Below, one piece after another: positions 1-18,563 of a stretch of 64,000 nucleotides of DNA; positions within the stretch are counted from its first letter, which is position 1; every line of letters starts with the position of its first letter. Source of the DNA: Nitrososphaerota archaeon. GTDB lineage: Archaea > Thermoproteota > EX4484-205 > JAAOZP01. The position numbers and the translations under genes were made by a program. The stretch is from contig JAAOZP010000009.1 in assembly GCA_011605725.1 (NCBI GenBank), forward strand, positions 64,001-128,000, given 5' to 3'. Under the pieces are notes generated by a model. It made no database searches. It was not told the DNA's origin and saw only the letters and a list, made by a program, of their open reading frames with translations.

Positions 1-28
1 AAAACCCTCTGGAAGCGAGAAAAAGTGA
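1..28 (+). CDS. 3' end of upstream gene, probably ribosomal protein uS13 (partial)
   Basis: Frame KPSGSEKK* ends at TGA 26-28; identity inferred only from the usual rps13-rps4 gene order. Confidence 0.4.
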
Positions 29-34
29 TGAGAA

Positions 35-526
35 ATGGGTGATCCCCGTAAGATTAGAAGCAAAATCCTGCATCCGAAGCATCCCTGGGTCAAGGAGCGT
101 CTGACAGAAGAGCTTGTACTCGTAGGGGAGTACGGGTTAAGAAACAAGAGAGAGCTTTGGAGAGCCGCATCCTTCCTGAGAGGCATAAGGGCTTCAGCCC
201 GTTCCTACTTGAGCCTGACGGGTGAGGAAAGGGTTAAGAGGGAGTCGGAACTCATTTCGAGACTACACAGGCTCGGCCTAGTAAGCAGGGACGCGAAGCT
301 TGACGATGTTCTCTCCCTGACTGTTTCAAACGTTCTTGAAAGAAGGCTTCAGACGATAGTTTACAGGAAGGGTTTTGCGAAGACTATTCACAGCGCTAGG
401 CAAGCGATAGTTCACGGCAAGATTATGATAGGTGATCAGGTTGTAAGGTCTCCCAGCTACTTTGTCACGAGAGACGAGGAGCCTCTTGTAAGGGTTAAGA
501 CAGTTGAGGAGAATAAGGCTGTGTAA
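35..526 (+). CDS. rps4: 30S ribosomal protein uS4
   Basis: MGDPRK...HPW, YGLRNKRELW, LERRLQTIV S4 motifs. Confidence 0.97.
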   Translation: MGDPRKIRSKILHPKHPWVKERLTEELVLVGEYGLRNKRELWRAASFLRGIRASARSYLSLTGEERVKRESELISRLHRLGLVSRDAKLDDVLSLTVSNVLERRLQTIVYRKGFAKTIHSARQAIVHGKIMIGDQVVRSPSYFVTRDEEPLVRVKTVEENKAV

Positions 527-12176: not shown

Positions 12177-12569
12177 ATGGTTAGGGTTACAACGGCTGAC
12201 TACGAGCCGAGTAAAGAACTTGTTGAAGAGGCTTTAGAGCTGCTTAGAATCGCCTCCAAGACTGGTAAGGTTAAAAGAGGCACCAATGAAACCACGAAAG
12301 CCCTTGAAAGAGGAGTTGCTAAACTAGCGTACGTGGCTGATAACACTGACCCTGTTGAGGTGGTGCTCCACATACCTTTACTAAGCAGGGATAGGAAAAT
12401 CCCTTACATAGTTGTTCCGGATAAGAAACAGCTGGGTGAGGCTGCTGGGCTCTCTAACGTTTCAGCCGCGGCCGTGGCGATAATAGACCCGGGTGAAGCT
12501 GCTCCAATGCTTGAAAGCGTGGTTAAGAAGATAGAGTCTGCAAGGGCTAAGGCTGGGGGAAGCGGTTGA
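12177..12569 (+). CDS. rpl7ae: 50S ribosomal protein eL8/L7Ae
   Basis: [24 protein letters not shown]. Confidence 0.96.
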
Positions 12570-12772
12570 GCGAAGAAGCTACTCCGGCAGAGGTTGTCGA
12601 ACTGGTGGCGAGATCAGGCGCCTCGGGCGAGGTTACTCAAGTTAGGGTCAGGATTCTCTCGGGCAGGGATAGGGGCAGAGTTATTCTTAGAAACGTGCGG
12701 GGCCCGGTTAGGGTTGGAGACATACTTATGCTTAGGGAGACTGAGAGGGAGGCTAGAAGGTTCTCGGGGTGA
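12566..12772 (+). CDS. rps28e: 30S ribosomal protein eS28
   Basis: [24 protein letters not shown]. Confidence 0.97.
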
Positions 12773-12778
12773 TGAGCC

Positions 12779-12973
12779 ACGCCCACAGCCTTCAAGTGTA
12801 GCTTCTGCAACAGGACGTTCCTGATCGGGGAGGGCATACTTTATGTTAAGAAGGATGGAAGCATCTTAAGGTTTTGCAGCTCCAAGTGTTTCAGGAACTC
12901 TGTGAAACTAGGTAGGAATCCTAGAAAGGTTAAGTGGGTAACCAGTAAAACGCGGACTGGAGGCACGTCTTAA
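12779..12973 (+). CDS. rpl24e: 50S ribosomal protein eL24 (absent from the ORF track; apparent ACG start)
   Basis: Manual translation (M)[54 protein letters not shown]; in-frame TGA at 12773-12775 blocks upstream starts. Confidence 0.93.
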
Positions 12974-13629
12974 TGAGGCTTGTGATCTTCGGCCCGCCTG
13001 GCTCAGGCAAGGGAACGTATGCTTCAAGGCTTGCTCCGAGGCTCGGGGTACCGCATATTTCAACCGGGGACATTTTGAGGGATGAAGTGAAGAGCGGCTC
13101 AGAGCTGGGTAAAAACATATCGAGCTATGTTTCAAGCGGGAAACTTGTTCCAGACGAGGTTGTGAACAGGGTTATGGAGAAAAGGCTTTCACAGGAAGAC
13201 TGTAAGAGAGGCTTCATACTTGACGGTTACCCGAGGACACTGAAACAGGCTTTTTTCTTGGAAAAGATTTCGAAAATAGATTTCGTGGTAAACCTGAATG
13301 TTCCGGATGAGGTTATAGTCAGACGCTTGTCTTCAAGGCTTGTCTGCAGGAGATGTGGTGCAATATACAATAGGATAACGCTTCCGCCTAAGGTTGACGG
13401 TGTCTGCGACAAGTGTGGAGGAGAGCTTTATCAGAGGGATGACGATAAGCCTGAAGTAGTAAGAGAAAGGATAAGAGTGTATAAGAATGAGGCTGCTCCG
13501 CTGCTTGAACACTATCGTAAGTCCGGGGTGGCGGTAATTGATTTCTACTATGAACCTGATGAGACTGGTGGCGATGTTTCGCCAGACACCGTTGTAGACA
13601 GGATTATTAAGGCTCTTAAAGGCTCTTAA
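12973..13629 (+). CDS. adk: adenylate kinase, bacterial-type with zinc LID
   Basis: GPPGSGKGT, HISTGDILR, FILDGYPRT, CRRC...CDKC, QRDDD. Confidence 0.95.
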   Translation: MRLVIFGPPGSGKGTYASRLAPRLGVPHISTGDILRDEVKSGSELGKNISSYVSSGKLVPDEVVNRVMEKRLSQEDCKRGFILDGYPRTLKQAFFLEKISKIDFVVNLNVPDEVIVRRLSSRLVCRRCGAIYNRITLPPKVDGVCDKCGGELYQRDDDKPEVVRERIRVYKNEAAPLLEHYRKSGVAVIDFYYEPDETGGDVSPDTVVDRIIKALKGS

Positions 13630-16111: not shown

Positions 16112-17404
16112 ATGTCACAGTCAGACGAGTCCATGAAGACGATTGTTTCTTCTTCAGATAAAGAAATAGATAATTATAGATTTATTCAACCATGTTTAAA
16201 TTTAGGAACTTTGGGTCATGTCGACCATGGGAAGACCACTCTCGTCCAAGCTATTACAGGAGTTTGGACGAGCAAGCATAGTGATGAGTTGAAGAGAGGT
16301 ATTACGATTAAGCTCGGCTATGCGAACTTCGCTGTTTTCCAATGTCCGAAATGTCCTCCCCCGTACAACTTCACAACTTCTCCACGGTGCTCATGCGGGT
16401 CTGAGGCTGTCTTCCAGAGAAAGATAAGCATCGTGGATTCGCCTGGCCACGAGATACTTATGACGACCATGCTGAGCGGCGCTGCTGTTATGGATGCCGC
16501 AATACTTGTGATCGGTGCAGACGAGGTTTGCCCGCAGCCCCAGACATATGAGCACCTTTTAGCTGCTGAGATAATGGGGATTAAGAGGCTAATCGTTGTC
16601 CAGAACAAGATTGACATAGTTTCTAGGGAGCGGGCCTTGAAAAACCTGGAGGAGATTAAGAGCTTTCTTTCTGAGACAAGGTTCGCCGACGCCACTATAG
16701 TACCAATGTCTGCGCAACATAAGGTTAACGTAGACGTGTTGCTTTACGTTATTCAGAAAGAAGTTCCTACACCGGTTTTCGACCTAAACTCTCCGGCAAG
16801 AATGATTGTCATAAGGTCTTTCGACGTTAACAGGCCTGGTATTCCGGTCAGGGATATGCGTGGCGGTATACTGGGTGGTTCAATCATCAGGGGGGAGATA
16901 AGGGTTGGCGACGAGATTGAAATACTGCCTGGTCTAAGGGTTAAGAAGGATGATACTGTTGAAACAGTGCCGCTTGTTGCGGAAGTGGTTTCAGTGGGTT
17001 TCGACAATGTTTTTGTTGAAAGCGTTAGAAGCGGGGGTCTCGTTGGAATTGGAACAACTCTAGATCCTTCTCTAACTAAGAATGACCTGCTGGTTGGAAA
17101 CATGGCTGGGAAACCCGGTACGCTACCGCCTGTTACACGAAGCATCACTTTAGAGTACAGCATGTTTGAGAGGGTTGTCGGCGTCAGGGGTCTTGTGAAG
17201 ACGGAACCCATCCGAACCGGGGAGGTTTTGAACGTTAACGTCGGTTCAGCTTTGACACAGGCTGTTGTGAAAGATGTTAAGGATAACAGGATTAACCTAA
17301 GCCTTAAGATGCCTGTTTGCGCGGAGAAGGGTCAAAGAGTTGCGGTAAGCAGGCTTGTCGAGAGGCGCTGGAGGCTTATTGGACACGGTGTGCTTATCGG
17401 TTGA
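16112..17404 (+). CDS. eif2g: translation initiation factor aIF2 gamma
   Basis: GHVDHGKTT, RGITIKLGYA, DSPGHE, WRLIGHG. Confidence 0.97.
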   Translation: MSQSDESMKTIVSSSDKEIDNYRFIQPCLNLGTLGHVDHGKTTLVQAITGVWTSKHSDELKRGITIKLGYANFAVFQCPKCPPPYNFTTSPRCSCGSEAVFQRKISIVDSPGHEILMTTMLSGAAVMDAAILVIGADEVCPQPQTYEHLLAAEIMGIKRLIVVQNKIDIVSRERALKNLEEIKSFLSETRFADATIVPMSAQHKVNVDVLLYVIQKEVPTPVFDLNSPARMIVIRSFDVNRPGIPVRDMRGGILGGSIIRGEIRVGDEIEILPGLRVKKDDTVETVPLVAEVVSVGFDNVFVESVRSGGLVGIGTTLDPSLTKNDLLVGNMAGKPGTLPPVTRSITLEYSMFERVVGVRGLVKTEPIRTGEVLNVNVGSALTQAVVKDVKDNRINLSLKMPVCAEKGQRVAVSRLVERRWRLIGHGVLIG

Positions 17405-17790
17405 TGGTTCTCCTCGACTCTAGCGCTCTGCTGGCTCCATTCGAAACCGGGGTTGATTTCATAAACGGAATAACTGGGTTGACTCAAGGCAGAACATTGT
17501 TCCTAATACCTTTCGAAACGCTTATAGAGCTTAAGAGACTGAGCATTAATGGGCCTAGGCTTTCCGGTATGGCTAGGCTAGCCCTATCTGTTGCAAGCGG
17601 TTTCAGAACACTGCTTCCAACCGGTATGAGCTGTGACGATGCACTCGTTTACCTTGCAAAAACTTATAAGGCTGGTGTGGCAACAGCCGACAGGACGTTA
17701 AGCAGGAGGCTTAGAGCCTTGGGTATACCTGTTTTCTATCCTTCGGGGGGAAGAAGGATAGTTGGGAAAGGATGGTTCGAAAAGGGGTGA
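17404..17790 (+). CDS. Fcf1/Utp24-like PIN-domain protein
   Basis: VLLDSSAL, CDDAL, VATADRTL; conserved position between eif2g and rpoE1. Confidence 0.85.
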   Translation: MVLLDSSALLAPFETGVDFINGITGLTQGRTLFLIPFETLIELKRLSINGPRLSGMARLALSVASGFRTLLPTGMSCDDALVYLAKTYKAGVATADRTLSRRLRALGIPVFYPSGGRRIVGKGWFEKG

Positions 17791-17796
17791 TGAGGG

Positions 17797-18378
17797 TTAT
17801 TCAAGATAATCGAGCTTGAAGACGTGGTGAAGGTTCCGCCTTCCAGGCTCGGCGACCCTGTTGATGAAATTTTCAAAAACGTTCTTAAAGACAGGTATGA
17901 GGGTATGGTTATAGAGGGAATCGGATACATAATTCTGCTGGTGGATTACGACTTTAACCCAGTGGGTCAGATATCCCCTGGGGACGGTCACAGCTATCAC
18001 AAGGTTAGGGTGAAGGTGCTCTCCTATTATCCGGAGGTTAACGAGGTTGTTGAGGGGAGAGTTGTCGAAGTGGAGGAGTTCGGGGTTTTCGTGAGGCTCG
18101 TGACCACTGACGCTTTAATGCACGTGAGTCAGATTACTGACGATTACATGGATTACAATAGTTCCCAGGGCATTCTCGTCGGGAGACAGACTAAGAGGAT
18201 AATTCAGAAGAACGATTGGGTTAGGGCTAGGGTGGCTGCAGTATCTATAGGCAGGGGAGCCATGACTGACAAGATTGGGTTAACCGCTAGACAGCCCTTC
18301 CTGGGGAAGATCGAGTGGATTGAAGAGGACATTAGGAGGCTGGCTGGTGAGAAGCCTAAGCAGGAGGCTAAGGCTTAA
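17797..18378 (+). CDS. rpoE1: RNA polymerase subunit Rpo7/E' (apparent TTA start)
   Basis: (M)FKIIELEDVVKVPP, EVVEGRV, MHVSQI, GLTARQPFLGKIEW; in-frame TGA at 17791-17793. Confidence 0.95.
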   Translation, partial: LFKIIELEDVVKVPPSRLGDPVDEIFKNVLKDRYEGMVIEGIGYIILLVDYDFNPVGQISPGDGHSYHKVRVKVLSYYPEVNEVVEGRVVEVEEFGVFVRLVTTDALMHVSQITDDYMDYNSSQGILVGRQTKRIIQKNDWVRARVAAVSIGRGAMTDKIGLTARQPFLGKIEWIEEDIRRLAGEKPKQEAKA

Positions 18379-18563
18379 TGCCTCTCAAAGCATGTTTAAA
18401 CTGTAAAATGATAAGCGACTCACCTAAGTGTCCAAACTGCGGTGGAGAAGAGTTTACGCAAGAGTGGAGTGGCGAGGTTCTTGTTTTCAACCCTGAAGCT
18501 TCTTCAATAGCTAAACTCATTGGGGCAAGGGTTCCGGGAAGATACGCAGTGAGGCTGAAATAA
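18378..18563 (+). CDS. spt4: transcription elongation factor Spt4 (RpoE2)
   Basis: KACLNC...CPNCG...WSG...PGRYAVR. Confidence 0.95.
   Translation: MPLKACLNCKMISDSPKCPNCGGEEFTQEWSGEVLVFNPEASSIAKLIGARVPGRYAVRLK

Follow-up and report, generated by a model that had tools for sequence, protein, structure and literature searches.

Translation in archaea is held to begin at AUG, GUG or UUG, a rule on which gene callers and the annotation pipeline of NCBI depend. Here, we examine two gene junctions that appear to depart from this rule in a stretch of 64,000 nucleotides (nt), referred to below as the window, from an archaeon of the Candidatus Brockarchaeota (contig JAAOZP010000009.1 of assembly GCA_011605725.1, positions 64,001 to 128,000 of the forward strand). 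At these junctions, the genes for subunit E′ of RNA polymerase (rpoE, encoding Rpo7) and for ribosomal protein L24e (rpl24e) have TTA and ACG, respectively, at the conserved Met-1 position, a few nt downstream of a Shine-Dalgarno (SD) site that contains the stop codon of the upstream gene. On balance, it is fairly probable that rpoE and rpl24e of this genus are initiated at these non-standard codons, which would be placed by the ribosome-binding site, probably in a manner coupled to termination on the upstream gene.

The layout resembles termination-reinitiation coupling as described by Huber et al. 2019 (PMC6728339), in which the stop codon lies in or beside an SD in the 3′ end of the upstream gene and the restart codon is found a few nt away, in operons for ribosomal proteins and for subunits of complexes; TGATG, TAATG and TTGA overlaps occur near our junctions as well. 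However, the described restarts take place on ATG, GTG or TTG, whereas in the case at hand the restart codon would be ACG or TTA, and we infer the coupling itself. Initiation at near-cognate codons, such as AUU in bacterial infC, CUG and ACG in eukaryotes and viruses, and the sites reported in Haloferax (PMC7261190), offers another parallel, in that a non-AUG start is conserved and ACG is a classic one-mismatch codon. Indeed, the archaeal initiation machinery (aIF1, aIF1A and aIF2) resembles the eukaryotic one (PMC6237735), and in ribosome profiling of Haloferax about 30% of the putative alternative initiation sites were near-cognate, but were set aside (PMC7261190). By contrast, the codons described here would be the sole starts of essential, highly expressed genes and would be placed by an SD rather than by scanning and a Kozak context; UUA, with two mismatches, is not a recognized near-cognate codon; and no regulatory role like the autoregulation of infC is evident. 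The SD-stimulated +1 frameshift of bacterial prfB has in common with our junctions an SD-like element near a stop codon and a productive frame that is +1 relative to a nearby ATG, but in prfB the shift occurs at a conserved CUU UGA located 3 nt past the SD, and the zero frame contains a long open reading frame (ORF), whereas here no shift site is conserved, the upstream zero-frame coding amounts to at most one or two codons, and the spacer is variable in analogous genes. In the literature, of which our coverage is incomplete, we came across no core archaeal gene reported to have ACG or UUA as its only, conserved start, and the description of the Brockarchaeota, for which Prodigal was used with default settings, does not mention start codons (PMC8065059). 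What would be new relative to the described coupling and near-cognate initiation is the use of ACG or TTA as a conserved sole start at SD-coupled junctions of core archaeal genes.

The rpoE frame reads TGA TGA GGG TTA TTC AAG ATA ATC GAG, with GGG at positions 17794–17796, and the encoded protein begins with (x)FKIIELEDVVKVPP (Table 1). No ATG, GTG or TTG occurs in this frame between the stops and GTG 17824. Re-reading of the frame confirms an initial annotation of this DNA, according to which TTA 17797 occupies the Met position of Rpo7 after GGG and an in-frame TGA, and the first canonical start, GTG 17824, would come at the expense of nine residues. When read from TTA, the protein contains the two Pfam domains SHS2_Rpb7-N (PF03876; residues 8–64, E = 1.7e-10) and S1 (PF00575; residues 78–141, E = 6.2e-11), and the archaeal Rpo7 neighborhood is present, with spt4/rpoE″ directly downstream. 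The Rpo7 models of NCBI and the gene callers have 184, 189, 190 or 193 residues, depending on the genome of the genus.

The order of elements at the rps28e/rpl24e junction is TGA 12770, TGA 12773, GCC and ACG 12779, followed by the CSFC zinc motif of L24e. The initial annotation had pointed out that the two junctions share an 11-mer; this sequence, GGGGTGATGAG, is found at 17784–17794 and 12766–12776, with 0.01 exact copies expected from shuffles of the window, and these two copies are the only ones in the whole 2.23 Mb genome. Equally, the ATG that overlaps the stop is seen at 17790 and 12772, one base off the frame of the downstream gene at both junctions, just as had been reported. In both pairs, PIN/rpoE and rps28e/rpl24e, the upstream and downstream genes share a reading frame because GGTGA contains TGA, so that a stop inside the SD is in frame with a start 6 nt later. 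The stops end 6 and 3 nt upstream of TTA and ACG, the first TGA being located inside the SD.

The 3′ end of the organism's own 16S rRNA reads ...GGGAUCACCUCCU, so that the ideal SD is AGGAGGTGATCC; GGGGTGAT pairs with eight bases of this end, forming an 8-bp duplex that includes one G-U pair. Where the first canonical start of a long ORF is preceded by a strong SD, it most often follows the T of GGTGAT by 5 nt (81 cases) or 6 nt (53 cases); TTA and ACG are both found exactly 5 nt after GGTGAT, the commonest spacing in the genome. The SD score is 19 for rpoE, 19 for rpl24e and 23 for atpA, which is discussed below, whereas only 16 of the 1870 first canonical starts score at least 19; the SD sites of rpoE and rpl24e are among the strongest 1% of the genome. 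Genome-wide, GGTGA-N6 is followed by ATG in 33 cases, TTG in 14 and GTG in 4, with ACG (6) and TTA (4) among the commonest other codons; the codons in the slots at 17797 (TTA) and 12779 (ACG) are led by an SD and are not canonical starts. The uS4 junction combines the same SD and stop layout with a normal start: it reads GTGATGAgaa-ATG, shares eight bases of the motif and uses the in-frame ATG, and its start column contains ATG in four of the five genomes compared, including that of the window (G000), and TTG in G016. The out-of-frame ATG of the motif is a by-product because the SD is followed by a second TGA, as comparison with uS4 illustrates. Strong SDs at the preferred spacing are found at about 7% of the first canonical starts in the whole genome (123 of 1870 at a score of at least 15); given that they are so few, most genes are probably leaderless or SD-independent, and the SDs are probably concentrated at operon-internal junctions.

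Sequencing or assembly error, pseudogenization or a true start at GTG 17824 would be the most mundane explanation for the rpoE junction, and GGG is a short homopolymer, while gene callers did choose GTG 17824 in the 184-residue models. Nevertheless, we consider all three exceedingly improbable. The stretch is carried by 15 runs from 13 studies, mostly hot-spring metagenomes, with 2 from sediment and no RNA run listed; contigs from three runs of as many independent studies (depths 9–74) span both junctions without any substitution or indel. The feature is conserved in 16–17 species-level genomes, all of which, like the other genomes compared, are metagenome-assembled, and related genomes are not independent samples. 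These contigs and this conservation strengthen the earlier view that random error is unlikely. GTG 17824 is replaced by GTT or ATT in 3 of the 16 congeners and thus is not conserved as a start, and a protein initiated there would lack conserved residues, among them those at the first two positions of the SHS2_Rpb7-N profile.

The 15 other species-level genomes of the genus retain the same rpoE open frame. Among all 16, the Met-1 codon is TTA in 13, TTG in one (G004) and CTG in two (G003 and G005), and it is TTG in four genomes of two sister genera, in one of which TTG is the sole canonical rpoE codon after an in-frame stop. The stops that precede rpoE in the congeners take the forms TGA TGA, TGG TGA or TGA AGA, leaving an in-frame stop 3 nt (in G003, 6 nt) before the codon at the start position. 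For rpl24e, the Met-1 codon is ACG in all 17 same-genus genomes, whereas in 8 sister-genus genomes of the same order, the aligned codon is ATG (6) or TTG (2), in the context M/L-P-x-x-x-x-C-S-F-C. In a tree built from rpoE and aIF2-gamma DNA, TTA occurs in both main clades of the genus, and G004, G003 and G005 represent three separate lineages. TTA in rpoE would be either ancient and persistent or repeatedly arisen; under either history, it is compatible with function in an essential gene, as judged from its distribution.

The reading that we favor can be spelled out as follows. The ancestral start codons would have been lost (TTG to TTA in rpoE; ATG to ACG in rpl24e), with the same position still being translated. 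After termination on the upstream gene, the small ribosomal subunit would be held by the SD duplex, with its P site set on the triplet 5 nt downstream. There, the initiator tRNA (Met-tRNAi) would start despite one mismatch (ACG) or two (UUA), because a strong SD together with a local supply of terminating ribosomes would offset the weak codon. In the Pyrococcus system, aIF1 controls the sampling of triplets by the initiator tRNA in a complex that the SD has already positioned (PMC6237735). Near-cognate initiation positioned by an SD was one of the two possibilities raised in the initial annotation, and it gains from the SD complementarity, the modal spacing, the alignment with TTG and ATG of the sister genera, the layout of uS4 and four further gene/genome cases. 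The label near-cognate is apt for ACG, with one mismatch at position 2, as in rpl24e, atpA and the IscU-like gene, but not for the UUA of rpoE, with its two.

The first of these further cases, atpA, encodes subunit A of the A-type ATPase and is located outside the window (C7:99783–101558, minus strand), where ACG follows GGAGGAGGTGA. G000, G006 and G007 have ACG, whereas the codon is ATG in their congener G016 and in three sister-genus genomes; the same R-E-G-K/R follows in ACG and ATG genomes. A protein read from the first canonical ATG would be 18 positions short in its N-terminal beta-barrel domain (Pfam). The spacer between GGTG and ACG measures 8, 6 and 7 nt in three species. An IscU-like gene (C7:60274–60651) has ACG at the start defined by the SD in G000 and G010, with a spacer of 7 or 8 nt; its relatives have GTG one codon later (G007 and G016) or ATG one codon earlier (G003 and G014). 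The aIF2-gamma gene of G017, a member of a sister family, reads aaggaggggTGA-gcccca-ACG, that is, GGTGA+6, with no canonical start before the conserved core. In G014, the aIF2-gamma codon that is TTG in six close relatives is TTA and overlaps the rps6e stop (TTAA versus TTGA); there is no in-frame ATG, GTG or TTG before the P-loop, and the nearest such codon in any frame is an internal Met codon of rps6e 24 nt upstream. All clear cases of a non-standard start lie within 9 nt of an upstream stop. As a separate observation, an ATPase subunit A of the G000 type was found with this query in 3 of the 16 same-genus genomes (73–80% identity), while two others have proteins that are 42% identical, which suggests loss or exchange of the atpA operon within the genus.

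Where translation of rpoE begins can be narrowed down from the pattern of variation. When the 16 rpoE junctions are compared, near-random variation is seen at positions −2 and −1 (entropy 1.3–1.4 bits), whereas from position 0 onward changes are confined to third codon positions (TTA/TTG, TTC/TTT, ATA/ATT and ATC/ATT/ATA), except for the Leu-synonymous T/C at position 0 itself (TTA/TTG versus CTG); AAG is invariant. Because the variation is confined to third positions, codons 1–3 behave as coding sequence. This pattern, which also counts against a start at GTG 17824, bears on the alternative that rpoE starts at a near-cognate ATA (17806) or ATC (17809), with TTA TTC AAG as an untranslated leader, which we consider unlikely. 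Translation table 11 lists ATA, ATC and ATT, which mismatch only at the third position, as starts; 15 of the 16 congeners have ATA and the remaining one has ATT; and the annotators made this choice in the NCBI models of 190 and 189 residues. However, the two codons lie 14 and 17 nt past the SD, beyond the peak at 4–7 nt; codons 2–3 (TTY AAG) show only synonymous changes in 16 genomes, whereas the 2–3 nt just upstream vary freely; and the sister genera have the same F-K after a TTG start. Moreover, such a start would leave rpl24e unexplained, given that no ATH codon precedes its zinc motif.

The other possibility raised in the initial annotation was a recoding signal coupled to reinitiation, whereby the ribosome would restart through TGATG at the out-of-frame ATG or GTG in GTGATGAG and shift by +1 within two codons. 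All 33 junctions have an ATG or GTG in that frame at −7 and/or −10, and the confinement of the 11-mer to these two junctions genome-wide is compatible with such a signal. But this GTG/ATG belongs to the SD core and the stop, so that its presence needs no separate explanation, and uS4, with the same GTGATGAG, uses an in-frame ATG. The −7 ATG of rpoE is GTG in four congeners and AAG in one (G003), and in G014 no ATG, GTG or TTG occurs in any frame within 21 nt upstream of the TTA of aIF2-gamma. The putative four-base shift site appears in six forms in rpoE (AGGG, AGAG, AGTC, AGAA, AGAC and AGGA) and in six in rpl24e (AGCC, AGAC, AGTC, GGCA, GACC and AACC), and neither junction folds beyond shuffled controls (z = 0.48 and −0.58). 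Given the spacers of 6–8 nt in atpA and of 7 or 8 nt in the IscU-like gene, the shift would have to differ in size and direction among orthologs, and no single frameshift fits, whereas spacing changes of this kind are tolerated by an SD. With an unconserved shift site, no RNA structure and a variable spacer in atpA, programmed recoding is quite improbable and this part of the initial annotation does not hold up. Hopping from GGG to GGG across the stops was rejected as well, given that the landing codon is GAG, GTC, GAA, GAC or GGA in other species, as was a readthrough fusion, in view of the tandem stops and of the assignment of S28e and L24e to different ribosomal subunits.

A different kind of explanation dispenses with the initiator tRNA: a terminated ribosome, clamped by the SD, would resume with the matching elongator tRNA, yielding Leu-Rpo7 and Thr-L24e, so that the start would be set by position and not by the identity of the codon. 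Such a restart would account for the occurrence of Leu codons only at the rpoE site, across at least three independent changes, and for the proximity of every case to an upstream stop. We give it little credence, considering that, for TTG, the two available transitions are simply those to TTA and CTG and that we know of no such mechanism in archaea. In rpl24e, ACG is invariant in 17 genomes, whereas the Thr codon two positions later varies, and four ACG gene families (rpl24e, atpA, IscU-like and aIF2-gamma) use ACG only, never ACA, ACC or ACT. This invariance and exclusive usage favor pairing with the CAU anticodon of the initiator tRNA and count against an elongator Thr-tRNA. Strict conservation of ACG at the DNA level would also be explained by RNA editing that restores the start through C-to-U (ACG to AUG) and A-to-I (UUA to UUI, read as UUG) changes, both of which are deaminations. 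In plant organelles, AUG is made from ACG by C-to-U editing, and a conserved genomic ACG at the start position of an essential gene is common to that system and ours. Editing is nevertheless very unlikely here because two different deaminase activities would be needed and mRNA editing is, to our knowledge, without precedent in archaea; moreover, our junctions are known at the level of DNA.

Several points weigh against initiation at TTA and ACG by Met-tRNAi. The anatomy of the junctions and their conservation are directly observed, whereas we infer the acceptance of Met-tRNAi, and the weakest link is its acceptance at UUA, whose first and third bases do not match the CAU anticodon; we know of no organism in which UUA is accepted as a start codon. 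The TTA, TTG and CTG states of rpoE are all Leu codons, which would equally be expected if an elongator Leu-tRNA decoded them; 3–4 codons downstream of TTA are the near-cognate codons ATA and ATC; and the second TTA case, aIF2-gamma of G014, comes from a single metagenome-assembled genome. Nor does the initiation machinery account for relaxed codon selection: the initiator tRNA is ordinary (A1:U72, GGG/CCC anticodon stem and CAT anticodon), and aIF1 also looks ordinary. Finally, non-canonical codons behind SD-like motifs are not enriched genome-wide as a class (0.8% versus a background of 1.1%), and the case is built from the DNA of uncultured organisms. With these reservations, the most likely view is that these cells initiate translation at codons that are not known to serve as archaeal starts.

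Given the background-level frequency of non-canonical codons behind SD-like motifs, no genome-wide relaxation of initiation is seen; ACG alone is modestly enriched behind such motifs (5 of 200 versus 1%). In the syntenic region of the window, about 35 genes start canonically in every genome compared, and three (rpoE, rpl24e and aIF2-gamma) have a non-standard start codon in at least one genome. aIF1 is present in the genus and has Thr at the position of R33 of yeast eIF1, where the R33A mutation raises UUG initiation 7.7-fold (PMC4513230); this Thr is uninformative because Pyrococcus aIF1 has Ala at that position. Separately, aIF1 of this family and of some sister families lacks the N-terminal CxxC...CxC zinc knuckle of other lineages of the phylum, and its loop 1 reads RLEvTRWNKQ in the genus versus RLExRKFNKP in sister genera.

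Should initiation at ACG and, especially, at UUA be borne out, the start stringency of an aIF1/aIF2-type system could be overridden by SD strength and coupling, and genes for subunits of RNA polymerase, the ribosome, the ATPase and aIF2 would have ACG or UUA as their sole starts. Annotation of uncultured archaea would then systematically truncate or lose such genes. The junctions, at about 20 nt each, provide a compact natural test case for the trade-off between SD anchoring and codon-anticodon checking.

Table 1. Features of the junctions discussed in the text, in window coordinates
Feature	Position	Strand	Evidence and remarks
Upstream PIN-like gene	17404–17790	+	Pfam PIN_9, E = 2.7e-12; stop TGA 17788–17790
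SD site GGGGTGAT	17784–17791	+	Stop codon of the upstream PIN gene inside; complementary to own 16S rRNA 3′ end; SD score 19, spacing 5
Tandem in-frame stops TGA TGA, PIN gene/rpoE	17788–17793	+	Sequence
Out-of-frame ATG and 9-codon ORF	17790–17819	+	Candidate for +1 recoding; ATG at 17790–17792, one base off the rpoE frame
TTA, conserved Met-1 position of Rpo7	17797–17799	+	Proposed initiation codon; conservation across the genus
rpoE (Rpo7, RNA polymerase subunit E′)	17797–18378	+	193 codons and TAA stop
ATA ATC, codons 4–5, rival near-cognate starts	17806–17811	+	Chosen in NCBI models of 190 and 189 residues
GTG, first canonical in-frame start, codon 10	17824–17826	+	Nine codons after TTA
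spt4/rpoE″	18378–18563	+	Pfam Spt4 (PF06093), E = 3.2e-14; TAATG overlap with the rpoE stop
rps28e	12566–12772	+	Pfam Ribosomal_S28e, E = 6e-30; stop TGA 12770–12772
Second copy of GGGGTGATGAG: SD and TGA TGA	12766–12776	+	SD score 19 at spacing 5
rpl24e	12779–12973	+	Pfam Ribosomal_L24e, E = 3.7e-17; 64 codons and TAA stop; ACG 12779–12781 at Met-1
uS4 junction GTGATGAgaaATG	25–37	+	SD and stop arranged as at rpoE and rpl24e; in-frame slot occupied by a normal ATG

The junctions with the operon neighbors are classic overlaps, namely, TTGA at 12566–12569 (rpl7ae/rps28e), TAATG at 12971–12975 (rpl24e/adk), TGATG at 17402–17406 (aIF2-gamma/PIN), in which the ATG of the PIN-like gene shares TGATG with the aIF2-gamma stop, and TAATG at 18376–18380 (rpoE/spt4). 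Translational coupling thus appears to be the rule in these operons.

Elsewhere in the genome, several candidates for non-standard starts are less clear. Two ACG candidates have the strongest SDs of the genome, with scores of 25 and 23: C4:215673–215861, which encodes a predicted membrane protein of 62 residues, and C3:27111–27560, with 149 residues and the first canonical start 33 codons in, the relatives of which are 34–50% identical and too diverged to judge. A TTA candidate at C9:14912 has GTG and ATG 12–13 codons downstream, and its N-terminus is poorly conserved. In uL11 and eL39, located outside the window on the minus strand of contig C19 (39773–40264 and 43559–43714, respectively), the aligned Met codon is CTG, but neither case is clean, given that uL11 is preceded in frame by a TTG at a distance of six codons, close to a likely promoter, and eL39 by a GTG at a distance of two codons. 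Two CTG start candidates were found on the minus strand of C7 (0-based index 113883 of the reverse complement) and on the plus strand of C4 (index 246224); one of them reads aaggaggagTAGgctg-CTG, and in the other, stop and start overlap as CTGA, and the 783-codon ORF that follows has its first canonical start 34 codons in.

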